From NCBI GenBank assembly GCA_016839815.1, contig JAEOTM010000133.1, positions 1 to 64,000 on the forward strand: a stretch of DNA of 64,000 bases. The letters run 5' to 3'. A program made the translations under genes and the position numbers. Source of the stretch: Candidatus Hodarchaeota archaeon. GTDB lineage: Archaea; Asgardarchaeota; Heimdallarchaeia; Hodarchaeales; Hodarchaeaceae. The notes below the pieces were generated by a model. That model was not told the DNA's origin, did no database searches, and worked only from the letters and a program-made list of their open reading frames with translations. This document shows positions 2,329-64,000 of the stretch, in pieces (positions within the stretch are counted from its first letter, which is position 1; each line of letters opens with the position of its first letter).

Positions 2329-3870
2329 CTAACTATTTACTCGATAAATAACATCTAAAAGTGTTCCATCTCGATATTCAACTGTAGTACAAATTTCCTC
2401 GGTAAATTCAGGAGTGATTAAGGGTGCCTCACTATAAGCCATGTCTCGAAGTTCGGTTATATCAAGAATATCTAAATCAGTTTGTTTTAATTGCTTATAC
2501 AGTGGTTTATTCCTAGGATTAACCGCAATACCCGCGTTTGTAATAACAACATCTATCATCTCTCCCGGTGTTGATATAGTTGTCACGTTATCACGGATAA
2601 TCGGAACTTTCCGTGCAATAGGGCATGTAATAATAGTTAATCGTGCAGCTGCAGCATCTGTGTGACCTCCAATTCCATGGAGTAATAAACCATCACTGTG
2701 AGTATTCACATTCACATTAAAATCGACATCGATTTCTGTTGCACCTAAGGCCACAATATCTACATAATTAGCTAGCGGTCCTCCTGGTGCATAGATATTG
2801 TATGAATGGTAAGCCGAACATTCAATATGAAGAGGATTTTCTTTCAAGGATTTTACTGCAGCTAAATCAAAAGATTGTCCATCATAGATTCTCTGAAATA
2901 GATTGGCTTCTAAAAGCTCAACAGCGGCTTCAGTTGTCCCTCCATGAATGAAACTTCCAATTAATTCCTTTTCTGTCATTATTTCTTCTAGGTAGTGCAC
3001 TGTTGCTAATGATACCCCTCCTGCTCCTGCTTGAAATGAAAAACCACTCTTGATAAATCCTGCATTTTGTGCAACATGAATAACTTCTTCTGCGATCGCG
3101 GTATGTCTTCCTGTTACATTTCTTCCAAGACTTCCTGCAACAATTTTATTTGGATCCCCAATTTTATCAACAGTAACAATACAATCCACATTTGATCCGC
3201 GGATACTTACTGGAGTTACCGGTTCCTCGGTTAAATTATCCGTAACGAGTACTACATGATCTGCATATACCGAATCAGTCTCATTCGCAAATCCATTTGC
3301 TCCAAATGCCGAGGGCCCCTGACAGCCATTCATGTTCCCCATCAAGTCAACAGCTGGAGATGCTACAAATGCGACATCAAGATGTAGATCATCACATTCT
3401 ACTGCTCTAGCTCGTCCCCCATGCGAACGCAGGCTAGTTGGAATCTGAACTTCCCCAATGGATACCGCTTTTCCAATAGGTCCGTTCATACTTCCAGAAA
3501 TCTCACTAATGACCCCTGAATGGACGTGTTCAAGTAATGGTTCATGATTGGGAAATAATGCTGTTGAAGCAAGTGTTAAATCTTTTATCCCCATACTTGC
3601 AATTGTATCCATGACCTGACAGATAACTAGATCTCCATAACGTAGATTATGATTAAATCCAAGGCTCATCCCATCTTTTAATCCAACTTCTTGAATCACT
3701 TTCTCAAGATCGTCGTAAATACGTTTCTCAATGGGTGTAATTATCTTTGTACGATATCGTCTTCCGACTCTTCGTCCCTTGGGAGGAGTAGAGTAAGCTC
3801 CTGCGTATGGTAAATACTTCTTTCCAAATATTTGACTGGGAACATTTCTTCCAGCTGTATTTTTTTCCAT
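2329..3870 (-). CDS. citF: Citrate lyase alpha subunit (citrate:acetyl-ACP transferase)
   Basis: N-terminal NTAGRNVP, GLKDGMSLGFNHNLRYGD, LRSHGGRARA, FSFQAGAGG, LGATEIDVDFNVNV, GIGGHTD, EYRDGTLLDVI; 513 aa is typical of CitF. Confidence 0.9.
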   Translation of the reverse strand: MEKNTAGRNVPSQIFGKKYLPYAGAYSTPPKGRRVGRRYRTKIITPIEKRIYDDLEKVIQEVGLKDGMSLGFNHNLRYGDLVICQVMDTIASMGIKDLTLASTALFPNHEPLLEHVHSGVISEISGSMNGPIGKAVSIGEVQIPTSLRSHGGRARAVECDDLHLDVAFVASPAVDLMGNMNGCQGPSAFGANGFANETDSVYADHVVLVTDNLTEEPVTPVSIRGSNVDCIVTVDKIGDPNKIVAGSLGRNVTGRHTAIAEEVIHVAQNAGFIKSGFSFQAGAGGVSLATVHYLEEIMTEKELIGSFIHGGTTEAAVELLEANLFQRIYDGQSFDLAAVKSLKENPLHIECSAYHSYNIYAPGGPLANYVDIVALGATEIDVDFNVNVNTHSDGLLLHGIGGHTDAAAARLTIITCPIARKVPIIRDNVTTISTPGEMIDVVITNAGIAVNPRNKPLYKQLKQTDLDILDITELRDMAYSEAPLITPEFTEEICTTVEYRDGTLLDVIYRVNS

Positions 3871-47226: not shown

Positions 47227-47928
47227 TCAACTAAATCTAGGAATTGTAAATTCAACGGTTGTGCCTTTATTGATTCCAGCACTGTTTATCGACATTGTTC
47301 CGCCGTGATTTCTTATTATTATATTGGAAATGAATAAACCAATACCCGTACCCCCAATTGAGTATTTCGTGGGTATTGAAACAAAGGGATCTGAGACTTT
47401 CTTCAAGTCTTGAATGGAAATCCCAGCACCATTATCTGAAATTGAGATTTTGATGATATCAGTCAGAGTCAGATTGCATAATACGCTTATATGTCTACGA
47501 GTTATAGAAGTGTGGTCAATTGAATTTTGAATTATATTGTCAATCGCTTGAGCAATGCGTTCTGAATCTACCACAACTATCGAATTCTTTTTACCATTAT
47601 GAATTAATTTGTATTCAAAACGTTTTTCAAATCTTATTCTATATGGTTCGAATATAGTTTCTAGTAAATCAGAAATATTAACAGAATCCAGAACTAAATT
47701 TAGGTTACCTTGCGTTATATTATCAAGCTCATCGATACTGCCAACAAAACGTTCTAAGCGAAGAATATTCTTATCTAGAAGCTGAAAACACCTATCTCGT
47801 TCCTTAGAAGTCAGTTTTTCATTTTTTGAATTTAAAATTTCACAATATCCTTTAACTATATGTAGAACCTGTCTTAGTTCTCGTGAAGTCAATGATAAGA
47901 ATTCTGATTTAAATTGGTCTGTTTCCAA
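47227..47928 (-). CDS. Sensor-less HisKA-HATPase protein lacking the phospho-accepting His (pseudokinase candidate)
   Basis: H-box reads TSRELRQVL versus ASHELRTPL in the neighbouring kinase. N box NIIQNSIDH, DNGAGI and GTGIGL are intact. TTG start behind GGAGTGA. Confidence 0.8.
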   Translation of the reverse strand: METDQFKSEFLSLTSRELRQVLHIVKGYCEILNSKNEKLTSKERDRCFQLLDKNILRLERFVGSIDELDNITQGNLNLVLDSVNISDLLETIFEPYRIRFEKRFEYKLIHNGKKNSIVVVDSERIAQAIDNIIQNSIDHTSITRRHISVLCNLTLTDIIKISISDNGAGISIQDLKKVSDPFVSIPTKYSIGGTGIGLFISNIIIRNHGGTMSINSAGINKGTTVEFTIPRFS

Positions 47929-48117: not shown

Positions 48118-51100
48118 TTAAGGAGTTCCAAATACACGAGGGAGAGTTAGAGTAAAAGTAGAACCCTTGTCAATCCCATCACTCCTGACAGTGAGAGAGC
48201 CTCCATGAGCAATCATAGTTTGTTTCGCAATAAACAAACCGATTCCAGTTCCAATAACCGAATACTTAGAGGGAAGAGATACAAATTGCTCAAAAATTCT
48301 TTCATAATTCTCAGGAAGAATACCAGTACCATTATCCTCTACTGAAATGGTAATTACATTTGGAAATATTTCTGTTCGCACGTTTATTTTACGAAAATCA
48401 TTTGAGGTGTGTTTGACTGCATTTTCAATTAAGTTATCTATAACAAATCGAATTCGATCTTTATCCATATTTGCATATGCATTAAAGGATCCTGGAGGTA
48501 AAGAAAACATTATTTGATTTTTTAAATGCTTTCTATAGACCTTTTCTTGCTCTTTCATAAATTTACATATCTCTACATCTTTTAAATCAAAACTAAAGTT
48601 GTTATTCTCAATTTTTGAAATATCAAGAACTCCTGTTACTAATCGTTCAAGTCTTCTTATATTTCGCATTACCGTTCCTAGACATTTCTTACGTTGATAC
48701 TCATTTATTTTATCGAAGTGATTTTCTAGGAACTCAGTAGATCCCCTAATTATGGTTAATGGAGTCCGTAATTCATGAGAAGCCATTGTTACAAAATTAG
48801 ATCGATCTTCTTCAGCCTGTTTCAGAATGGAGATATCAGTTACAACGGAAAGATAACCATTCAAAGCTCCATGATCTGAATAAATTGGTGTAGTATTTAC
48901 AATTACTGGTAACAGCGCACCCTCTTTTGTTAGTAAAGTCGATTCAAATGTTCGCTTTGGATTTAATGAAAGTTTTTCAAATTCTAATTTAATTCTAGCA
49001 AATTCTTCAACTGGAATAATGAGATTCCAATATTTCCCGATCAATTCATTTTCGGTATATTCAAGGAGCTCACAAATTTTTGAATTTACAAAGGAGAATT
49101 GATGATCTAAACTTTCCAGTATAACTCCCTCCTGGAGATTCTCTATAAGTAGCTGATACTTATTTTTAGCTTGTCGCAATTCTTCCTCGACCTTTTTCCT
49201 ATCTGTAATATCGCGAGAAATGGAAAGTCCGACTTGTCTATTACTTAATGAAAAAAGGTGTGAATTTATTTCGACTGGAATTTTTCTTCCATTTTTAGTT
49301 ACATGTGCCGTTTCAAATGGTTTATTGACTAGATCAAATATCTTTTTTCCCATTTTCTTAAGTTTTTTATTCTCCTCATCTGTTTTTACATCCAGAGGAG
49401 TCATATTCAATAATTCCTCTTTGGTATATTCTAATCTCTGACAGGCTATATCATTTACCTCAATGAAGAGACCAATTTCTCCATTTGGTAAGATTTCAAA
49501 TAGATAGATTGCATCATTGGCATTATTAAACAGATTCCGATATTTCTCCTCAGAATTTTCTACTAGTAATTCTGAATGTTTTTGGGTTGTTATATCAAAG
49601 AACACTCCGTAAGCGCACTTTTCTCCTTCTTCTTCATAAACCATCAAACCGCGATCATGTAACCAGATATATTCCCCATCTTTTCTTCTAATACGATATT
49701 CAATGTCAAAGGAGGCGTTTTTTTCTAAAAGATTGTTAAATTTTACCTTTACTCTTTCTAAATCTTCAGGATGAATTCTGTTAAACCATAACTCCCTCCC
49801 CGCTTGATATATTTCTTCAGGAGAGTATCCGTATATATCAGAGATATTTTTACTCACAAAGTTCGTATGACCCGTTGAAGTAGATATCCATGTGACCCCT
49901 GGAATATTTGCAATTAAGGATTGGTATCTTTCTTCACTCTCTTTGAGTTGTCTTTTAGCGAGTTCAGAACTGGTTTTATCTCGAAATGATGCCACCATCT
50001 TCATGGGTTCAGTTTGAAAAGCAACTACCTCATAGATTCCTTTGATTTGTGTATCCTCATATGTAATTTGCTCTAGTTTCCACACCTGGCCTGTTCGGGC
50101 TACTCTCCGATAATTTTCTGGAATTTCAGTTTTGCTAAGAGGAGGAAACGCTTCCTCTATTGTTTTACCAATGAATTGATTCGTTTTGACCTTTAAAATA
50201 TCCCCTGCTGCGGGATTTGCTCCTAAAAACACTAATCGTCCGTCCTCCATCAGTTGATATTCTATCATCCCAAAAGGACTTGAATTGAAAATATTACGGT
50301 ATTTTTGTTCTGATAGTTTCAAGTCGCTTTCTGTTTGTTTATAGCCTGTAATATCAACATCTATCTTTAAGAACCCGCACGGAAAGCTATTCTGGTCCTT
50401 TACAAGAGATATTCGCGATCCAGCCCAAAAAATTGTTCCATTTTTTCGCTTTTGCTTAATTTGACCTTTCCAAGTTTCCTTCTCAACAGTTTTTATTATT
50501 TTTTGAAACTCTTTGGACTTTTTTTCTTCAGGAAAGGTTATTGATATGTTTGATCCTAATATTTCCTCTGCTTGATATCCATAAAGATCTCTAGCACCCT
50601 TTCCCCAATAAATTATTTTTTTATTCAAATTGATAGCAACAATTGATTCTTGAACACTATCAAGCAAACGTGCCTGAAAAAGAAGGCGCTCTTCCTTCCT
50701 TTTTCTGACTGTAATATCAATTCCTTGAAGTATTATGAGATTTGTAGGGGAATCTCTTCGATATATCTCATGAGCTGAAAATTCTATCCATCTCTTCTCA
50801 TCATCTCTTCTCTGGATTTCGATTTCAGTAATTTTTTGTAAAAGAGGCCTCGGTTCCTCCACTATAGTTAAAATAGCTTCGCGTTTCTTCATATCTGGTA
50901 CTAAAATTGATAGCCAGGAATCAAGATCATTAATCTCACCTAACTGATAACCAGTAAGACTTTCCATTGCCGCATTGTAATTCAAAATAGTTTTAGTCTC
51001 ATCCAATACAAGTGCAGGTTTCTCACTTTGACTAAATGCATTCCAAATATGTAGATCTTCAATCTTTCTAAACTCAAGTACTTCTAATACATTTCTCAAA

Positions 51101-51729
51101 TCCAAATTCGATTCAAAACCATGTCTTAATTTATTTACCGTATTCTCCTGATTAGAATTCTCCATAGTTTTATTAAAAAATTCTGTACCAATGATAGCAA
51201 TGGGATGTAGCAGGAATATGTCAGTTAGAAGTTTTAAATCAATCTGATTTTTATCGAATTGGTCGAGAAATAAACAATTGTCCTCTACACAAAATTCTGT
51301 AATATATCTTTCAAAATTTAGAAAATCTTGAGTAATATGGTCATTATTTGCCCCCAACCATGACATTTCACTGGCAACGCGTAACTTAGTCTGTCCTTCT
51401 GATATCAGACTACTCGTAAATTCCTTTAATTTTAATATTACACGATAAGGGGAGAAACAACCCGCATCCAGAAAAAACTCTTCTAGTGAAATTATCTCTA
51501 CTTGTTGTGATTGCAGATATTCATCCATTTCAATATACTGTGAAAGTTCTTTAAATATATAATCCCGTTGATCATAAGGGACGATCAATAAAATCTTTTC
51601 TTTATTTTCAATCCCCGAAATAACAAATGATGATAATATATTCAATCTTTCTTTATCATCAGTGTATATATTGCAAATATGTGAATTGATCAGTCCTTTG
51701 TTTGACCCCTGTTTCACATAATCGAACAT
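48118..51729 (-). CDS. Cytoplasmic MEDS-6xPAS histidine kinase
   Basis: MEDS pattern (HICNIY...LRVASEMSW...FLLHP), six PAS/PAC repeats ending in DIT/DIS/DKT, SHELRTPL, NLIENAVKH, DNGTGI, GTGIGL. Confidence 0.9.
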   Translation of the reverse strand: MFDYVKQGSNKGLINSHICNIYTDDKERLNILSSFVISGIENKEKILLIVPYDQRDYIFKELSQYIEMDEYLQSQQVEIISLEEFFLDAGCFSPYRVILKLKEFTSSLISEGQTKLRVASEMSWLGANNDHITQDFLNFERYITEFCVEDNCLFLDQFDKNQIDLKLLTDIFLLHPIAIIGTEFFNKTMENSNQENTVNKLRHGFESNLDLRNVLEVLEFRKIEDLHIWNAFSQSEKPALVLDETKTILNYNAAMESLTGYQLGEINDLDSWLSILVPDMKKREAILTIVEEPRPLLQKITEIEIQRRDDEKRWIEFSAHEIYRRDSPTNLIILQGIDITVRKRKEERLLFQARLLDSVQESIVAINLNKKIIYWGKGARDLYGYQAEEILGSNISITFPEEKKSKEFQKIIKTVEKETWKGQIKQKRKNGTIFWAGSRISLVKDQNSFPCGFLKIDVDITGYKQTESDLKLSEQKYRNIFNSSPFGMIEYQLMEDGRLVFLGANPAAGDILKVKTNQFIGKTIEEAFPPLSKTEIPENYRRVARTGQVWKLEQITYEDTQIKGIYEVVAFQTEPMKMVASFRDKTSSELAKRQLKESEERYQSLIANIPGVTWISTSTGHTNFVSKNISDIYGYSPEEIYQAGRELWFNRIHPEDLERVKVKFNNLLEKNASFDIEYRIRRKDGEYIWLHDRGLMVYEEEGEKCAYGVFFDITTQKHSELLVENSEEKYRNLFNNANDAIYLFEILPNGEIGLFIEVNDIACQRLEYTKEELLNMTPLDVKTDEENKKLKKMGKKIFDLVNKPFETAHVTKNGRKIPVEINSHLFSLSNRQVGLSISRDITDRKKVEEELRQAKNKYQLLIENLQEGVILESLDHQFSFVNSKICELLEYTENELIGKYWNLIIPVEEFARIKLEFEKLSLNPKRTFESTLLTKEGALLPVIVNTTPIYSDHGALNGYLSVVTDISILKQAEEDRSNFVTMASHELRTPLTIIRGSTEFLENHFDKINEYQRKKCLGTVMRNIRRLERLVTGVLDISKIENNNFSFDLKDVEICKFMKEQEKVYRKHLKNQIMFSLPPGSFNAYANMDKDRIRFVIDNLIENAVKHTSNDFRKINVRTEIFPNVITISVEDNGTGILPENYERIFEQFVSLPSKYSVIGTGIGLFIAKQTMIAHGGSLTVRSDGIDKGSTFTLTLPRVFGTP

Positions 51730-52114: not shown

Positions 52115-54721
52115 ATGGCAATTCAGGATGAGACACAAAAAAAATCCAGTTCAAAGGTTACAGAAATTTATAATACCATTTTTGACAATTCACATATTGG
52201 TCTTGCGATCTGTGATTCAGAAGGATTCTTTATTGATGCAAATCCACAGTGCTTAAAGATTTTTGGGATTCCAAGAATCGGAAAAGTAAAGGGATACAGT
52301 TTATTCGAAGAACCTAATCTTTCGGAGATGTTCAAAGAGAAATTAAAATCAGGGAAAGCAGTAATGTATAAATCTGTTTTTAATTTTGAAAAGATTAAAC
52401 AATTAAACCTTTTTGAAACAGAAAAATCTGGAACAATAGATGTTGCTTACCAAATCTCTCCAATCGTTCTTCAAGGACAATCGAATCTTGAGGGTTATAT
52501 TATATATGTCCAAGATATCTCAGACAAGATTCAAGAGCAAAAGGAATGTTTAAGCCATGAAATAAAATTCCAGGAAATTTTTAACAATGTAAATGATGGG
52601 ATAGTGATTACAGATCCAAGTACTCGACCGGGGAGGTTCTTAGAAGTTAACAGAGTTTTTTGTGAAAGACTTGGATACACTAAGTCTGAACTTTTAGAAA
52701 TGAGTACAATGGATACGAATACAGGAGAATTTAATCCTCCGCTCCAAGAAATATATGAAACCTTGGAGAAATATAATTCGGCTACATTCAAAAACGTAGA
52801 CTTAACTAAGGATGGTACTCGCATTCCTGTGGAGGTTAATACGTATCTATTTAGCCTTAATGGTAGACACGTCTTATTATCAGTTTCTAGAGATATCAGA
52901 GATCGGATACAGTTCATAAAACAAGTTGAGGAAAATGATTCTTTGCTTAATACACTTTTAACAAATTTACCATTGGTTCTATATCAGATAAATTCAGAGG
53001 GATTTTTTACTAAATCAGAAGGTGCTGGATTAGTACACCGAGGCCTAAAAGAGCATATAAGAATCGGAGTGAATGTCTTTGAAGCTTGGCCTGAATTCAC
53101 TGATAAATTTCAGCGCGCACTAAGGGGAGAAAATGTACGTTTTGAAGCACATAGGGAAATCAATGGCAAGATGATGTCTTATCTTACTTTTTTAATGCCT
53201 GATAATAACGCTGAAAGAGGGATTATAGGGATTGTTATCAATTTATCCGAGCAGGAGGATTTAAAGAGAAAATTGATCCAAAGTGAGGAGAAATATCGTT
53301 CCTTAATTGATCAGGCGAATGATGGGATTATAATCATTCAAGATGACAAAATGGTGTTAATTAACCATAAATTTGCTAGAATGCTTGGGTACACAATTGA
53401 TGAACTGCAAGACAGATCAAATTTCGATCTTGTTCATCCAGATGTCTCTTCGGAATTAAATGAGCGAAGAAAAAGAAGGTTAAGAGGTGAACAAGTCGAA
53501 TCAATCTACGAAACTATACTAGTGAAAAAAGATGGTGACTCCTTAGATGTCGAATTAAACGTAGATCTTATTGATTACGAAGGAAAACAGGCTTTTCTCT
53601 CCTTCGTTAGAGATATTACTGATAGAAAAAGAGCAGAAAGGCGGATTAAGGAATCAGAAAGAAAATATCGGATGATAATCGAAACTGCACAAGAAGGTGT
53701 CTTTCTACTGGATTCTGAACAGAGAATTACTTATGCAAATCAGCAGTTTTCCGAAATGATAGGGTATTCACTTGAAAATCTGATTGGTCATTCAATATAT
53801 GAATATATCAGAACAGAAACACACAAGAAAATTAAACTCCTCATTAATAGAATCACAAAAGGAACCAAAGAAAGTTTCGATTTTCCCTTTCATCGCAGAG
53901 ATGGATCAATTTTTTGGGGATTACTGCAAACTAATCCAATATTTGACGAAAAGGGAAGAATAAAAGGTATTTTAGGTATGATTCTTGATATCTCTGATCG
54001 AAAAAAGATGGAAGAACAGACTAGAAAACAGCTTTTGAAATTTAACGTTGAGGGGGGTTATGTTTACCTGGTGAAAGAAAGTTCGTCAACATTATCCCTC
54101 AGTGTCTTTAAAGATCTTTGTCAATTAGGATATCAATGCCTAGCTTTTTCTAGAACTCTTGAACGAGATTTCCAAAAGAATATCGATACAGAATGTAGAT
54201 TTTATTGGCTTGCACAAAAAGGAAACTTAAATTCTATTCAACCAGATTTAAATAGTATACTATCAGAAATAGAGAAACAGAACCAAAGATCAGTTGTATT
54301 AATTGACAGATTGGATTTTCTGATTCAGAAAAATGGATTTAAAGATGTTTTGAACTTCATCTATGAATTAAAGGAAATTGCTTACACTGTTGACTTGATA
54401 ATCCTACTCTCTATTGATCCACAAACATTAACAAACCAGGAACTCCATCTACTAGAAAAAGAAACAAGTGAAATCGAGACTAGATCACTGGATAAAATTC
54501 CAGAAGATATGCTTTCGATTCTAAGATTTGTTTATCACAAGAATAATTCGGGAGTTAAGCCTGCTTACTCAGATCTTGGAACAGAATTTCAAATTAGCAG
54601 GCCAACTACAAGAAAACGAATAAAAACTTTAGTTGCTACTGGATATCTTTCAGAATACCGTTTTGGTATTCGCAAGATTTTAGAGGTTACCGAAAAGGGA
54701 AGAGCTTTCTTTTTAGATTAG
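52115..54721 (+). CDS. 5xPAS-DUF835-wHTH putative one-component transcription regulator
   Basis: Five PAS/PAC repeats; DUF835-like VYLVKE...FYWLA...VVLIDRLDFLIQKNGFKDVLNFIYELKE; C-terminal wHTH PAYSDLGTEFQISRPTTRKRIKTL...LEVTEKGR. Confidence 0.85.
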   Translation: MAIQDETQKKSSSKVTEIYNTIFDNSHIGLAICDSEGFFIDANPQCLKIFGIPRIGKVKGYSLFEEPNLSEMFKEKLKSGKAVMYKSVFNFEKIKQLNLFETEKSGTIDVAYQISPIVLQGQSNLEGYIIYVQDISDKIQEQKECLSHEIKFQEIFNNVNDGIVITDPSTRPGRFLEVNRVFCERLGYTKSELLEMSTMDTNTGEFNPPLQEIYETLEKYNSATFKNVDLTKDGTRIPVEVNTYLFSLNGRHVLLSVSRDIRDRIQFIKQVEENDSLLNTLLTNLPLVLYQINSEGFFTKSEGAGLVHRGLKEHIRIGVNVFEAWPEFTDKFQRALRGENVRFEAHREINGKMMSYLTFLMPDNNAERGIIGIVINLSEQEDLKRKLIQSEEKYRSLIDQANDGIIIIQDDKMVLINHKFARMLGYTIDELQDRSNFDLVHPDVSSELNERRKRRLRGEQVESIYETILVKKDGDSLDVELNVDLIDYEGKQAFLSFVRDITDRKRAERRIKESERKYRMIIETAQEGVFLLDSEQRITYANQQFSEMIGYSLENLIGHSIYEYIRTETHKKIKLLINRITKGTKESFDFPFHRRDGSIFWGLLQTNPIFDEKGRIKGILGMILDISDRKKMEEQTRKQLLKFNVEGGYVYLVKESSSTLSLSVFKDLCQLGYQCLAFSRTLERDFQKNIDTECRFYWLAQKGNLNSIQPDLNSILSEIEKQNQRSVVLIDRLDFLIQKNGFKDVLNFIYELKEIAYTVDLIILLSIDPQTLTNQELHLLEKETSEIETRSLDKIPEDMLSILRFVYHKNNSGVKPAYSDLGTEFQISRPTTRKRIKTLVATGYLSEYRFGIRKILEVTEKGRAFFLD

Positions 54722-58689: not shown

Positions 58690-61302
58690 TCATTGATCAG
58701 ACATATGCGAAAATGAATTTAAACCTCTGAGTGTTAGCTCTAATACTTTGGTCCTTCCTTTTTGATTTTCTCTCAGATATCCGATTGAGGTTAGATGTTT
58801 AATACGTTTTCTTACGGTGGGTCTACTAACTCCCAATTCATTAGCGACTTGTGTATAACTTGGTTGAATCCCATTATTATTGCTAGCATAAATGAATCTC
58901 AATATTTCTAAGAGGTGCAAGGGAATTTCTGCTAGAACTCTTGTTTCTACCTCATTGGTCTCTTTTTCCAGTAATTTTATCTGTTCATCCGAAATTGTTT
59001 GACTATCGATTGATAGAATAATTACCAGATTCAAGAATATGGCTGTTTCCCTTAATTTGTAGATGAGCAAGAGAGTCTCTTTGAATCCATGTTTCGAGAT
59101 TAAATAATCTAATCTCTCAATCAGAATTACAGTTTTCGGTGGTAAACCTTCAATAGTGTGCTCTATTTTTTCGAATAGGGATGAAAATTTACTTTCTAAT
59201 ACTATTTCTGCAAGCCATAAATGCTTGAACTCTACATCTAATCTTTCCATACATTCGATTTCTGGAGTTCTTGACAAAATTGTACCTGAGTATCCAATCC
59301 GAATCATGTCACAGAATACTTCTCTCGAAAGGATCGGATCAACCTCTTTCACAAGATATAGTTGCTGATCTTCGATATTGAATTTAAGTAATTCCTGTCT
59401 CATTTTAGTTTCTATTTCTTTCTGTTTTGTTACATTTCGCCAAATACTCCCAATCATGAATCCAGACTGAGTTTTAATCGGAAATACATTTATTTGTACG
59501 TAATTATGTCCTCCATCTCGTTTCGTGATCTCTGTCTCAATTGGTCTTGAAAGCCATTCAGCTTTCCCTGTGTCAAGTACTCTAGTGAGTCTCTCAATAA
59601 TCAGGTTTGTAGATTCCGATTGAAGAACGTGAGTTGGCATTAAGGGTTTGTATATTTCCCAAAAAGGTTTACCAATGGCTATCTCCTTACTAATTCCTGT
59701 TAATTTCTCTATACCCCGATTCCATTGTACAACTTGTCCTTCTTCAGAAATAAGAATAATTCCATCACGAGAATTATCAATTAGATTTCTAATTTTAGTT
59801 TCACTTTCTCTTATGTTTTCTTCGATTTCTTTTAAGTATGTGATATCAACAAGAGAAGCATAAACCTTGGAAAGTGATTTCTCAAATCCAGGGACCACTG
59901 AAACTTTAATAATTACGTTTATCTTTTTTCCGTTAACGGAATAAATAATCCCCTCCCTTTCAAGGTTCATTTTGCCATTATATAGAGCGAGAAAATCATT
60001 CCTAAAATGTCTTAGTTGGTCCCCAAGAACAATGCTTGATTCTCCATATAAGTCTTCTATACTATCTGCTTCAAATAACTCTAGCGTAGATGAATTCGCT
60101 TTTACCGTTTTTGATAATTTTGCAATTGTATATGGATTTCTCTCTAGATATTCTTCCAAATCAACAATACCATTTTCTTTTAATTGATCCAAGAATTCCT
60201 TAGCCTTAGAGAAATCCAATTCGCGAATTGATACAGGAGAATCTTCAAATAATTGTCTGAAACTAATTTCACTTTCCCTAAGTGCGATTTCAGATTCCTT
60301 AAGAGCAGAAATATCAGTTACTGTTATAAAAACCTTAGAAAGACAGTCTTCAAATCCTGGAACAACAGCTGCTCTAATAAGTACATGAACACATTCACCT
60401 TTAAAGGTGTAAGCAGTTGTTTCTGTTTCAAATTGTGTTTCATTCTTAATGAGAGAAAAAATTAGGTCTGTAAAAGCAAATCGCTGTTCTTCACGAAGAT
60501 TCTTAAAGTTAGATCTTTGAAACTCTTCAATACTATTGGCGCTATAAAAGTTCAATGCAGCCTTATTTATACTATTAAATTTTGCATGATTGAGAATAGA
60601 ATTTAATTTCTCAGGCTCTCTTTTAAAATATTCATGAAAATTTTTAACCCCCGCTTTGCTTAGCTTGTCAAACCTCCTTTTTATTTCGGAGAAATCAACT
60701 TCCAATAAACTAATGGGTGAATCTTCGAATAGCCGCCGAAATTTCGCTTCACTCGTAATTAAACTATCTTCGATATTCTTTCGATCTGTTATATCGGTTA
60801 ATATACCATAACAATACTTGGTTCCGTCCTCCTCATAAGTAGTTAAACCTCGATCATGAAGCCAAATCCAAGAATTATCTTTTCTTTGAATTCGATATAC
60901 AACATCAAATATTTTATCGTCTGAAAATAGCTCTTTAAATGCCTTTTTCACATTATTTAGATCATCTTTATGAATCCTACCAAACCAGAGGTTTTGTTCA
61001 GCTTCATAAATTTCTTGGGGGGAGTATCCATACACTTTTTCAATATTAGGACTAATATATGTTGTCAATCCATCTTCATTCGTAATCCAACTCACAGCTG
61101 GAATATTCTCCACTATAGATTTGTATATTTCATCGCTTTTCAGTATCTTCTTTGATTTGAATTCTTCTCGGTCGATGAGATCTTCCATTACGTTCCTAGA
61201 GCTTAATTTGTCCTTTTTTTGTTCAGAGAGAGCTGTATGAATTATTTTCTTAACATCTTCAGATATATCTACTCTACTGAGAAGAGATTCAAGCTTTTTC
61301 AT
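58690..61302 (-). CDS. 4xPAS-DUF835-wHTH putative one-component transcription regulator
   Basis: Four PAS domains (two are tandem FEDSP..DFS paralogs); DUF835-like LYLVKE...VILIERLDYLISKHGFKETL; wHTH PSYTQVANELGVSRPTVRKRIKHL...LELTLRG. Confidence 0.85.
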   Translation of the reverse strand: MKKLESLLSRVDISEDVKKIIHTALSEQKKDKLSSRNVMEDLIDREEFKSKKILKSDEIYKSIVENIPAVSWITNEDGLTTYISPNIEKVYGYSPQEIYEAEQNLWFGRIHKDDLNNVKKAFKELFSDDKIFDVVYRIQRKDNSWIWLHDRGLTTYEEDGTKYCYGILTDITDRKNIEDSLITSEAKFRRLFEDSPISLLEVDFSEIKRRFDKLSKAGVKNFHEYFKREPEKLNSILNHAKFNSINKAALNFYSANSIEEFQRSNFKNLREEQRFAFTDLIFSLIKNETQFETETTAYTFKGECVHVLIRAAVVPGFEDCLSKVFITVTDISALKESEIALRESEISFRQLFEDSPVSIRELDFSKAKEFLDQLKENGIVDLEEYLERNPYTIAKLSKTVKANSSTLELFEADSIEDLYGESSIVLGDQLRHFRNDFLALYNGKMNLEREGIIYSVNGKKINVIIKVSVVPGFEKSLSKVYASLVDITYLKEIEENIRESETKIRNLIDNSRDGIILISEEGQVVQWNRGIEKLTGISKEIAIGKPFWEIYKPLMPTHVLQSESTNLIIERLTRVLDTGKAEWLSRPIETEITKRDGGHNYVQINVFPIKTQSGFMIGSIWRNVTKQKEIETKMRQELLKFNIEDQQLYLVKEVDPILSREVFCDMIRIGYSGTILSRTPEIECMERLDVEFKHLWLAEIVLESKFSSLFEKIEHTIEGLPPKTVILIERLDYLISKHGFKETLLLIYKLRETAIFLNLVIILSIDSQTISDEQIKLLEKETNEVETRVLAEIPLHLLEILRFIYASNNNGIQPSYTQVANELGVSRPTVRKRIKHLTSIGYLRENQKGRTKVLELTLRGLNSFSHMSDQ

Positions 61303-61425: not shown

Positions 61426-61995
61426 TTAATAAGCTTTTAACTTATTATTTTCAATTTTAAAAGAGTTTAAATCAATTAATTTCGTTTCTTTTTCCAATAG
61501 ACGTAGATTACGTGAATCTACTCCGTGAATTTTAAAGGAAATAATTACGATTAATGATTTTAAAATCACTAATTCTTTTAATTTATATATAAAGTGTAAA
61601 ATCTGTTTAAAACAAGTATGAGAAGTTAAATCATCCAATTCTTTTATAAATAGGATCTCCTTCCCTGTAGTTTTACTCACTGTATTTTTAATGGAATCAA
61701 ACAAAAATTCAGAGAGAGAACTTTCCATCACTTGTTCCATGTATTTTAAGGAAGTATGAATAGGTAAACCATCCTTTAAATCCTTTTCTGGACTTTTGGA
61801 TATGAGAATGACTTTATAACCTGCAGAAGATACGAAATTCAAATTTTCTTGAGAAAATAATGAAAAACCCTTCGTTAAGAGGTATATGCTTCCGGGTTGG
61901 AGTTCTAAACCTACTGGTAAATTCTCTAAAGTTTCATTTGGAATATTAGAATGATCTAATTTGTCTATTATTACGAGATAATAAGTATTGTTCAT
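61426..61995 (-). CDS. Stand-alone DUF835-like protein
   Basis: GSIYLL, VILISKSPE, ILFIKELDDL...FKQILHFIYKLKE..ILKSLIVIIS, LRLLEKETK, matching the DUF835 segments of the two regulators. Confidence 0.75.
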   Translation of the reverse strand: MNNTYYLVIIDKLDHSNIPNETLENLPVGLELQPGSIYLLTKGFSLFSQENLNFVSSAGYKVILISKSPEKDLKDGLPIHTSLKYMEQVMESSLSEFLFDSIKNTVSKTTGKEILFIKELDDLTSHTCFKQILHFIYKLKELVILKSLIVIISFKIHGVDSRNLRLLEKETKLIDLNSFKIENNKLKAY

Positions 61996-62083: not shown

Positions 62084-62104
62084 ATAAGGAAAATTTCATG
62101 TAAA
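62084..62104 (-). promoter_or_regulatory. TTTCC motif, site F (upstream of stand-alone DUF835), partial
   Basis: ATAAGGAAAA at 62084-62093 (core 62088), with a degenerate GTAAA 12 bp further out; AT-rich TATA-like tract on the gene side. Confidence 0.45.
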
Positions 62105-62145
62105 AATAAAATAAAAATTATTATTGTTCTAGCAAGAAAGGATAA

Positions 62146-63204
62146 TTATTCTGCGTGTACTAGATATGTCAATAGATACTCGACGAACGGACTACTTCTT
62201 TCTATAGTTTCAATATCATCTTGGATAATATACGAAATTGGCTTTTTATGGTTCAATCTTCCCCTAGGAGATCGAGGAATCCTATTGACAACAGCTATTA
62301 TCTTAGTATCCCCATTTATCTTGAGATTATGCAACTTTCGTATTTCTTTAGAAGTTAGGTTTGTGTGAATCACCAAAATATCATATGTTGTTGTTTCATT
62401 ATATTGTTCGATCAAATTAGTTAGTACTTGGAAATTATTACAGTAAAATGGATGTATATCATTACTTTGAAGTATTATGCTTAGCTTTTCAAACAAGATT
62501 TCGTTATTGCTGAAAATTAAGAGTTTCTTATCTTCTTGTTTTAAGATATTAGCTTTTAAATCTCTTATCAATCGATAAAGCACATCTTGGAGTTTTGCCT
62601 CTAATATATCATCCTGAATTACCGTAGAAATGACATCTTTTAAGCTAGCTATTTTTTTTATCGAATCTTTTAATGAGTCAAAGCCTAAATCGGAAAATAG
62701 TTGAATACCCCTCCAATATATGAATTCTATAGGAATATTTCCTACAATCGCTTCCATAAATAAATTCTGGAACTGTTCTCTTTTAATATCTTCTAAGAGT
62801 TCTTGATCGGTCAAGAAACTCTTTATTTCACTTGTAAATGTATCTGTTTCTAGACTCCAATCAAAAAGGAGATTTTCCATTGTGCTAAGGTATTTTTCAA
62901 CAAATTTTGTGCCTATGAATTGTAGCATAATTTTTACTGAGAAGGGTTGAACTTTTTCTGTACTCCCTGACACGATTGCTGCGACAATTATCTCCCCGAT
63001 CGATTCAAAATATAATTCATCCTCTCCCAATTTTAAATATTCGACTGACTTATGGTCAGTAGTAAGGGATTCAGCAAAATTTGCAAGTCCTGATACAAGC
63101 CCTGAAAACAATTGGTCTTCGATCTGATAATCTGAAAATTCAGCCTCAAAATGATAGTGACATAAGCCGATTTTTGAAATAATCCATAGATTTTTGATTA
63201 TCAT
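62146..63204 (-). CDS. Longin-like N-terminal domain fused to a degenerate receiver-like C-terminal domain
   Basis: N-term IKNLWIISKIGLCHY...DQLFSGLVSGLANFAESL...FVEKY is the pattern of Asgard longin-type proteins. C-term KKLLIFSNN...YDILVIHTNL...TKIIAVV...SYII follows the REC beta/alpha pattern without the acidic pocket. Confidence 0.65.
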   Translation of the reverse strand: MIIKNLWIISKIGLCHYHFEAEFSDYQIEDQLFSGLVSGLANFAESLTTDHKSVEYLKLGEDELYFESIGEIIVAAIVSGSTEKVQPFSVKIMLQFIGTKFVEKYLSTMENLLFDWSLETDTFTSEIKSFLTDQELLEDIKREQFQNLFMEAIVGNIPIEFIYWRGIQLFSDLGFDSLKDSIKKIASLKDVISTVIQDDILEAKLQDVLYRLIRDLKANILKQEDKKLLIFSNNEILFEKLSIILQSNDIHPFYCNNFQVLTNLIEQYNETTTYDILVIHTNLTSKEIRKLHNLKINGDTKIIAVVNRIPRSPRGRLNHKKPISYIIQDDIETIERSSPFVEYLLTYLVHAE

Positions 63205-63237
63205 TTTTGACTTCCTTCATTACAATGAGGCAAATAC

Positions 63238-64000
63238 TTAGTTTTTTCGTCTATAAATTCGATTTTTCGTATCAATTATCTCAAATTTATCTTTAATAAA
63301 CTGTGGGAGAACTTCACATCTACCTAATACTAAATAACCACGAGATTTAAGAGAGGAATAGAATTGCTCAAAAAAAACTTTACTCTGCGATCTTGAGAAG
63401 TAGATCAACACGTTCCGACACATAATTAGGTCAAAATCCTTACCTGGGGGTGTAGTTCTAAGATCATGCTGTTGAAAACTTACCAAATTCCTAATTTGTC
63501 TAGAAAGTTGAAACTGTTCTGAATCTAGAGGTGTGAAGTATTTAAGTCGTCTAGGATGATCTGTTTCCTCTAATGATTGTTTTGCATAAATTCCCTTTCT
63601 TGCTTGTTCTAACAGCGCCTGGTTAATATCAGTAGCTAGGAGATATATTTTATTAGGAGGATATTTCTCTTGCAAATCTTTTAAGATCATGGCCAAGCTA
63701 TAGGGTTCAGGACCTATTGCACATCCAGCACTCCAAATTCTAATATTTTTAGAGGTATCCTTCATAATAGTAGGAAAAATTTTCTTTTCTAATGCTATAA
63801 ATAATTCCTTATCTCGAAAAAAACGAGTTACATTGATAGAAAAAGTCTCCATAAGAAGATTGAATTCTCTAGGGTTCCTTTTCAATACATTATGATATTC
63901 TCTATATGTTTCTGTTTCGATTCTTTTCATCCGTGCATGCAAACGTCGAAGAAAATGATTAATTTTGTAAGCTTGATAATTTATACCCCTATTCAAGAGG
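63238..64000 (-). CDS. cheR: Chemotaxis protein-glutamate O-methyltransferase, 5' end beyond window edge
   Basis: YK...LRRL..RM, INVTRFFRD, IRIWSAGCAIGPEPYSLAM, ATDIN, FDLIMCRNVLIYF, GYLVLGRCE. Confidence 0.95.
   Translation of the reverse strand, partial: LLNRGINYQAYKINHFLRRLHARMKRIETETYREYHNVLKRNPREFNLLMETFSINVTRFFRDKELFIALEKKIFPTIMKDTSKNIRIWSAGCAIGPEPYSLAMILKDLQEKYPPNKIYLLATDINQALLEQARKGIYAKQSLEETDHPRRLKYFTPLDSEQFQLSRQIRNLVSFQQHDLRTTPPGKDFDLIMCRNVLIYFSRSQSKVFFEQFYSSLKSRGYLVLGRCEVLPQFIKDKFEIIDTKNRIYRRKN

Follow-up and report, generated by a model that had tools for sequence, protein, structure and literature searches.

A putative longin and pseudo-receiver protein encoded beside cheR in an Asgard archaeon

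What would a protein that joins a longin-like domain to a receiver-like domain do at the end of an archaeal chemotaxis operon? The question is raised by the first 64,000 nucleotides of contig JAEOTM010000133.1 of Candidatus Hodarchaeota archaeon (hereafter the window), where the gene studied here, gene X (62146..63204, minus strand), encodes such a protein of 352 amino acids (aa) directly downstream of cheR. An earlier reading of this DNA, made without database searches, had described X as a longin-like domain fused to a pseudo-receiver, and had suggested that it bridges chemosensory signaling to a small-GTPase or membrane-remodeling system. The source lineage belongs to the archaeal group closest to eukaryotes, and the names that homologs of X bear assign it to Hodarchaeales, among the Heimdall-type Asgard archaea. 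Asgard archaea have complete bacterial-type chemotaxis gene sets (PMC9834061), crawling by actin-driven protrusions has been filmed in Asgard cells (PMC13716822), and Asgard longin and roadblock proteins have already been published (PMC10933270). In the literature on Asgard longins with chemotaxis and on Hodarchaeales chemotaxis, we found no description of the architecture of X or of its linkage to che genes. We know of no connection between sensing and actin-driven movement in Asgard cells. Here we report that X belongs to an Asgard family found inside several kinds of che operon, and we see a roughly even chance that it is a nonphosphorylatable accessory protein, either adaptor or scaffold, of the Asgard chemosensory pathway.

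Results

Gene X and its family in che operons

The cheR stop codon (63238-63240) and the X ATG (63204-63202) lie 33 nt apart on the same strand, as the earlier reading had it, and Pfam identifies the upstream gene as cheR, both from its 3′ part in the window (63238..64000, minus strand; 1.9e-53) and from the whole 400-aa gene, which extends to contig position 64440 (6.9e-53). The cheR-X spacer contains a ribosome-binding-like motif, GAAGGAAG (63211..63218, minus strand), 6 nt before the X ATG. At the other end of the gene, a T-rich tract that reads as a likely archaeal terminator (62101..62116, minus strand) begins at most 30 nt past the X stop, and an AT-rich spacer of 150 nt leads to the next gene. 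The short spacer with its motif and the T-rich tract after the stop indicate that X is the last gene of a che transcription unit. The window ends inside cheR, and the remainder of the unit was read from the 77-kb contig, which gives the order cheB-longinA-cheW-multiCheW-cheY-cheA-cheC-cheD-cheR-X.

The same layout surrounds orthologs with 79, 68, and 62% identity to X (loci L009-L011), where the cheR-X spacers measure 36-40 nt. More distant relatives are found in che operons of other composition. A protein with 33% identity (P0050) is encoded in the order cheA-cheC-cheR-X′-cheW-cheD-cheB, whereas one with 31% identity (P0056) stands at the head of its operon, X″-cheW-cheY-cheB-cheC-cheD-cheR, with a 4-bp overlap between X″ and cheW; in a further locus (P0145, in the cluster of P0058, 33% identical), cheR-X‴ converges on a methyl-accepting chemotaxis protein (MCP) gene, an unannotated gene, and cheW-cheY-cheB-cheA-cheC-cheD. 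Including the X locus, family members thus occupy four different che-operon arrangements, and because che genes make up <1% of such genomes, this recurrence in lineages that are 31-33% identical is very unlikely to have arisen by chance. The proposed link to chemosensory signaling therefore stands on stronger evidence than the adjacency from which it had been drawn. The survey of homologs for cheR linkage that had been suggested as a check found it in L009-L011, P0050, and P0145, and found it not to be universal.

Searched exhaustively with HMMER, 1.84 billion protein representatives yielded 40 members of the X family, all of them from Asgard archaea. We collected 41 orthologs at 47-81% identity, and since conservation extends over their whole length, the open reading frame (ORF) is far more than a chance one. 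These sequences form the Hodarchaeales clade; a second set, at 25-35% identity, has the same three-part architecture and lacks the IPRxPRGR loop described below. Three relatives of ~520 aa (P0061, P0063, and P0072) begin with a genuine Pfam receiver domain (REC), from which a linker leads to the longin domain and then to the helical region, and end before the pseudo-receiver. Among 301 sampled genomes of the phylum, full-length X occurred only in its own GTDB genus (13 of 22 genomes) and elsewhere the longin domain alone matched, so that metagenome contigs are the only known source of the subfamily at 31-33% identity. In G015, a genome of the same genus that has neither full-length X nor CheR, 62 residues match the C-terminal end of X, with an in-frame TAA (C13, 90594-90779), possibly a decayed remnant.

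A predicted longin fold at the N terminus

The structure of X was modeled with AlphaFold2 from the 41 orthologs (mean predicted local distance difference test, pLDDT, 76; predicted template modeling score, pTM, 0.48). In the N-terminal domain (aa 1-~135; 62800..63204, minus strand), DSSP assigned E3-10, E15-20, H30-46, E57-59, E62-69, E72-79, H87-109, and H120-132, which corresponds to the ββ-α-βββ-α order of a longin fold with one further helix. Superposition with VIA placed this domain on TRAPP Bet5 (3cue_A; Z 12.3), Fuzzy (11.7), Sec22b (11.7), VAMP7 (11.4), and AP2 sigma (11.0), in alignments spanning 113-129 residues, with pLDDT at ~60-80 in this part of the model. Foldseek, a search independent of VIA, ranked AP sigma, TRAPP Bet5/Trs23, zeta-COP, Sec22b, Mon1-Ccz1, and SR-alpha on top among PDB structures (E 2e-4 to 1e-2), its longin matches reaching a probability of 1.00 and E values down to 1.9e-4. 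The roadblock protein MglB (3t1r_A) also matched, over residues 1-111 at Z 10.2; longin and roadblock folds share a core, and X has the longin-type C-terminal helix and no N-terminal helix of the roadblock kind. The longin-type pattern that had been read from residues 1-~130 is thus borne out by two structure searches on the model.

Sequence profiles gave a different picture. Pfam and NCBIfam, run against X as a whole and in three pieces at E values up to 10, returned chance-level matches only; the Pfam longin families (Longin, Sybindin, Sedlin_N, Clat_adaptor_s, and Fuz_longin_1) matched neither X nor its residues 1-140 at this threshold, and the best longin match anywhere in the family, to Fuz_longin_1, came from a single distant member (E 0.096). 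A Pfam scan of 21 diverse family members found no family common to them, and profile searches of the three X domains separately against PDB sequences yielded designed proteins and noise only. By its modeled structure, X appears to have the longin and receiver folds but to be a member neither of the Pfam longin families nor of REC, as judged from sequence and active-site residues.

Between the two folds lies a region modeled as helical (aa 136-224; 62533..62799, minus strand), conserved in a near-invariant EDIKREQFQNLF stretch and at W164, and without a sequence match among solved structures.

A pseudo-receiver at the C terminus

The C-terminal domain (aa 225-352; 62149..62532, minus strand) was modeled as five parallel strands alternating with helices over residues 227-349 in the strand order of REC, that is, as a CheY-like (βα)5 fold. 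VIA superposed it on dozens of receivers, including 2qxy, FixJ (1d5w), KdpE (4kfc), and CheY (3gwg), with Z scores of 10-10.9 and root-mean-square deviations of 2.4-2.9 Å over 100-111 residues. The segments KKLLIF, YDILVI, KIIAVV, and SYII correspond to predicted strands β1, β3, β4, and β5, with S232-N233-N234 following β1 and Q328 following β5; H280 (codon 62365..62367, minus strand), at the end of β3, takes the place of the phospho-accepting Asp57 according to the predicted strands and the hhalign register.

The pocket is altered throughout the family. At the positions of the acidic pair, X has S232-N233; the 41 orthologs have Cys (26) or Ser (15) at 232 and, in 29 cases, Lys or Arg at 233. 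The column equivalent to Asp57 contains Asp in 25 orthologs, Glu in 5, His and Gln in 3 each, Ser in 2, and Lys, Gly, and Asn in 1 each. At the position of the conserved Lys, X has Q328, as Gln is found in 39/41 orthologs, and the Thr/Ser position is V306/N307. X lacks the acidic pair, the phospho-accepting Asp, the Thr/Ser after β4, the Lys after β5, and any match to the REC profile. These columns and the VIA superpositions agree with the receiver fold at residues ~226-352, the S-N-N pocket, the His at position 280, and the missing Lys that the sequence-only reading had noted. With all phospho-acceptor features lost, the domain is predicted to be nonphosphorylatable.

No match of Response_reg (PF00072) to X was found at E values up to 10, and the X family profile retrieved no receiver from PDB sequences. 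When the C-terminal domain was aligned by hhalign with the genuine REC domains of the same loci, the expected register was recovered at a probability of 1.1% and E 0.047. As kinship with REC has no sequence support, “pseudo-receiver” is here a statement on fold and not on descent.

The modeled domain also lacks helix α4: the stretch from strand 302-306 to strand 323-327 contains no helix, and a loop (307-322; pLDDT 81-88) containing the sequence IPRSPRGR (aa 309-316; 62257..62280, minus strand) takes its place. In this IPRxPRGR motif, I309, P313, G315, and R316 do not vary within the Hodarchaeales clade, whereas the motif is not found in the subfamily at ~30% identity. The α4-β5-α5 face is the usual output surface of genuine receivers, which makes the conserved, remodeled loop a plausible contact site.

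A further candidate longin gene within the che unit

The che unit contains a second candidate longin gene, longinA, an unannotated gene between cheB and cheW whose family measures ~240 aa and has 53 homologs. Its model (pLDDT 64) has the ββ-α-βββ-α order with additional helices, and all 50 of its top 50 structural matches are longin or roadblock proteins (sedlin, Z 13.5; Fuzzy, 13.2; VAMP7, 12.9; Bet5, 12.8). Hhalign connected longinA with the N-terminal domain of X (E 7.7e-5, probability 62%, 63 columns), and the hidden Markov models (HMMs) of the two families each detect members of the other; BLASTP of X against longinA gave nothing significant, so that profile methods alone connect the two.

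LonginA has a fixed place in the operon (cheB-longinA-cheW...), also in genomes that have X elsewhere. In two genomes (G012 and G016), longinA′ and X make up a cassette of two genes separated by 60-80 nt, with unrelated genes on either side and no cheR nearby. Two arrangements, the che operon and the stand-alone cassette, therefore keep X and longinA together. Since longin and roadblock domains are usually dimeric (PMC10933270), this recurring pairing makes an X-longinA heterodimer a reasonable hypothesis by analogy. Co-folding of X 1-225 with longinA 1-118 gave an ipSAE of 0.09 in both runs, which were made without controls, and we use this value neither for nor against binding.

The longinA gene lies beyond the window (contig C98, 70933-71658; 8934-9659, minus strand, of locus L005). 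Its first ATG falls inside a helix of the longin fold, giving a listed ORF of 183 aa compared with ~240 aa in orthologs, which start with GTG or ATG; the frame stays open for 58 codons further upstream without ATG, GTG, or TTG, which points to an unusual start codon or a damaged N terminus.

Pathway output and small GTPases

Profiles for CheF (PF04283), the ArlD/E switch, and archaellin found no match in this genome, which is 89.5% complete, while the control genomes were found in the same searches. No output of the che pathway is thus recognizable here; the genome does have type-IV-filament ATPases. X itself has no match to the Pfam CheF-arch profile, and its being a CheF analog by homology was rejected.

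The genome contains ~60 small GTPase genes, none of them on the 77-kb contig. The X longin HMM detected ~20 further ORFs of the genome at E <1e-3, including two on contig C198 that are fused to GTPase domains and others that lie beside one (C45 and C139), so that the domain, which had been called a eukaryotic signature, deserves that name only loosely in this genome. Examples of the related ORFs are C198 779-2191 (minus strand) and 2388-3851 (plus strand), C45 16234-17238 (minus strand), and C83 1676-2788 (plus strand); besides the two longin-GTPase fusions, the set contains a GTPase whose C terminus is longinA-like and one fusion each to a histone fold and to TPR. In one distant relative only (P0056), a RagA-like GTPase lies a few genes from the family member: the stretch behind cheR (L024 8096-11337, plus strand) encodes a longin-like protein of 161 aa, a RagA/Arf-type GTPase (Gtr1_RagA, 1.9e-17), and a protein of 509 aa that has a REC domain at its C terminus. 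Because GTPase genes are common in Asgard genomes, this proximity could be due to chance. The suggested bridge to a small GTPase or to membrane remodeling thus found no direct evidence, and a GTPase partner for X is conceivable by analogy, as a speculation.

Discussion

A candidate accessory protein of the Asgard chemosensory pathway

The accessory role, to which we give about an even chance, could work as follows. The pseudo-receiver would dock on a surface that recognizes CheY-like domains, be it CheA-P2, CheC/CheD, or another target, or would itself be read by a partner, with the remodeled α4-β5-α5 face and its IPRxPRGR loop as the contact site. The longin domain would pair with another longin or roadblock protein, for which longinA is the best candidate, and together X and longinA might pass the che signal to an effector other than CheF or ArlCDE. 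The genuine REC fusions in P0061, P0063, and P0072 tie the family to two-component signaling and favor such a role. We consider it improbable, as a more specific version, that an X-longinA heterodimer is the output adaptor of Asgard chemotaxis, with the dead receiver inserted in the CheY/CheA circuit and the longin pair acting either on a small GTPase or on the machinery of actin-based protrusions; if true, eukaryotic longin guanine nucleotide exchange factor (GEF) platforms would have here a prokaryotic forerunner wired to a chemotactic signal.

Several observations weigh against an accessory role in chemotaxis. About half of the sampled close orthologs of X lie away from che genes: those at 55 and 49% identity stand among unrelated genes (peptidase M28 and Lhr helicase), and 200 kb separate X from the che operon in a closed genome of 4.9 Mb. 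X clearly need not be encoded beside che genes. Two genomes (G001 and G003) have X and no detected CheR or longinA; both are incomplete, and G003 retains four MCP genes. On the side of the che link, CheR is present in 11/13 X-positive compared with 4/11 X-negative genomes of the order, counts that serve as supporting evidence only, as related genomes are not independent samples. In addition, the binding partners named above are candidates, the receiver likeness comes from the predicted fold with no profile method linking the domain to REC, and the pTM of 0.48 denotes a moderate overall model in which the packing of the domains is uncertain.

These points leave room for a different function, in which X would be a general longin-family regulator (for instance, a GTPase platform, a subunit of a GEF or GTPase-activating protein, or a trafficking or scaffold protein) brought next to cheR by rearrangement and without a chemotaxis-specific role. 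Such a function would account for the orthologs that are not che-adjacent and for the presence of X in two genomes without detected CheR, and it would fit the ~20 related longin-like ORFs, some of them fused to or beside small GTPases (C198 twice, C45, and C139), as well as the GTPase regulation that eukaryotic longin domains chiefly serve (PMC10933270). We nevertheless hold it to be fairly unlikely: four che-operon arrangements at 31-33% identity are hard to obtain by chance, relatives carry genuine REC fusions, the pairing with the longinA of the che operon recurs in two arrangements, and there is no GTPase gene on the contig.

The neighborhood could also be taken more literally, with X as a partner of CheR on the adaptation side, tethering or regulating the methyltransferase at the receptor array and having no part in output. 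The order cheR-then-X is indeed found in three divergent lineages (the X clade, P0050, and P0145), the spacer being 33-48 nt in the X clade and at the P0050 locus L016 but longer in L015 (131 nt) and L025 (240 nt), and Hodarchaeales CheR has an unusual extra N-terminal segment of ~145 aa. This is doubtful, however, as the P0056 gene heads its operon and overlaps cheW, far from cheR, and as X is paired with longinA′ in G012 and G016 with no cheR nearby; to our knowledge, moreover, no CheR partner has the architecture of X. It is very improbable that the C-terminal domain is a working, atypical receiver phosphorylated by CheA in most family members. The Asp (25/41) or Glu (5/41) of many orthologs in the Asp57-equivalent column and the close fold match to receivers would suit this proposal, but the column varies freely and is His in X, C/S and K/R stand in place of the metal-binding pair throughout the family, the Lys position is Gln in 39/41 orthologs with Val/Asn at the Thr/Ser position, and there is no REC profile signal.

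Comparison with known systems

By analogy, the nearest functional parallel to X would be the Frz pathway of Myxococcus xanthus, which acts on the MglA GTPase and the MglB roadblock protein via the receiver proteins RomR, FrzX, and FrzZ (PMC4316618, PMC9481161), and the nearest structural relatives of its N-terminal domain would be eukaryotic longin platforms. Frz, as the system considered here may be, is a chemotaxis-type pathway without a rotary-motor target that employs a roadblock/longin protein and receiver adaptors, two kinds of module that X unites in one chain, and MglB is among the structural matches of X (3t1r_A, Z 10.2). X differs in the permutation of its longin fold, which has a C-terminal instead of an N-terminal helix, in its dead receiver, and in having no MglA-like or other GTPase at its locus, and its interactions are candidate ones. 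The eukaryotic platforms (TRAPP Bet5/Trs23, Mon1-Ccz1, Fuzzy-Inturned, AP sigma/mu, the SRX of SR-alpha, and Sec22b/VAMP7) share the ββ-α-βββ-α topology and are usually homo- or heterodimers, which fits the second longin gene in the X operon; unlike them, X continues into a receiver-like domain and is encoded in a che operon, and no sequence relationship is detectable.

Receivers that work independently of phosphorylation provide a parallel for the C-terminal domain. HP1043, an atypical orphan regulator (2hqr), and the receiver-like domain of CpaE (4dn6) match X at Z 10.0-10.4 and, as X appears to do, keep the receiver fold while having lost the phospho-acceptor chemistry; X differs from both in the Pro/Arg-rich loop that replaces α4, in having no DNA-binding or ATPase output, and in its N-terminal longin domain. 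In archaea, CheF is the adaptor between CheY-P and the ArlCDE archaellum switch (PMC7534055, PMC9126983). X might by analogy hold the same logical place, as an archaea-specific, che-linked protein of the nonenzymatic class in a lineage where che output calls for an adaptor, but it has no similarity to the CheF family, and its genome has no matches to CheF, ArlD/E, or archaellin. Finally, the PATAN-REC regulators PatA, PixG, and PixE belong to a chemotaxis-like pathway controlling nonflagellar motility (PMC11181946). These regulators resemble X in their logic alone, a protein-interaction domain at the N terminus being joined to a receiver at the C terminus. PATAN-REC receivers are phosphorylated, whereas that of X is predicted to be dead, and X has neither a PATAN Pfam match at E values up to 10 nor a PATAN protein among its top structural matches.

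X is of interest as a concrete, cloneable, and testable candidate for a missing part of the Asgard che pathway, and longinA likewise. Its family, confined to Asgard archaea, combines a fold of eukaryotic type with an apparently dead CheY-like domain and recurs inside che operons; if the che link holds, a eukaryotic-signature fold would be at work within a prokaryotic two-component circuit.

Neighboring genes

Downstream of X lie a stand-alone DUF835 gene (61426..61995, minus strand; Pfam DUF835 5.9e-8, slightly under the cut-off), a PAS-DUF835-HTH regulator, and two MCP genes. The DUF835 gene is also the downstream neighbor in the che-linked subclade (L009-L011); it seems to have its own upstream region, and we treat it as a context gene and claim no joint action with X. 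The window contains two proteins with PAS arrays, DUF835, and helix-turn-helix (HTH) domains (52115-54721, plus strand, and 58690-61302, minus strand) in addition to the DUF835 gene, and all three keep their place downstream of X in the same subclade.

The CheR of the X clade is 400 aa long, compared with 245-273 aa in the distant loci; its additional ~145 aa at the N terminus resemble another helical segment of the CheR_N type with a lysine-rich linker after it. The multiCheW gene of the operon (L005 6023-8269, minus strand, beyond the window) encodes a 748-aa protein of several CheW domains and adjoins the single-domain cheW; its counterpart in other genomes of the genus (L012 and L013) has ~1150 aa. 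Elsewhere in the window, a 1203-aa MEDS/PAS/HisKA/HATPase kinase gene (48118-51729, minus strand) adjoins an ORF of 233 aa (47227-47928, minus strand).

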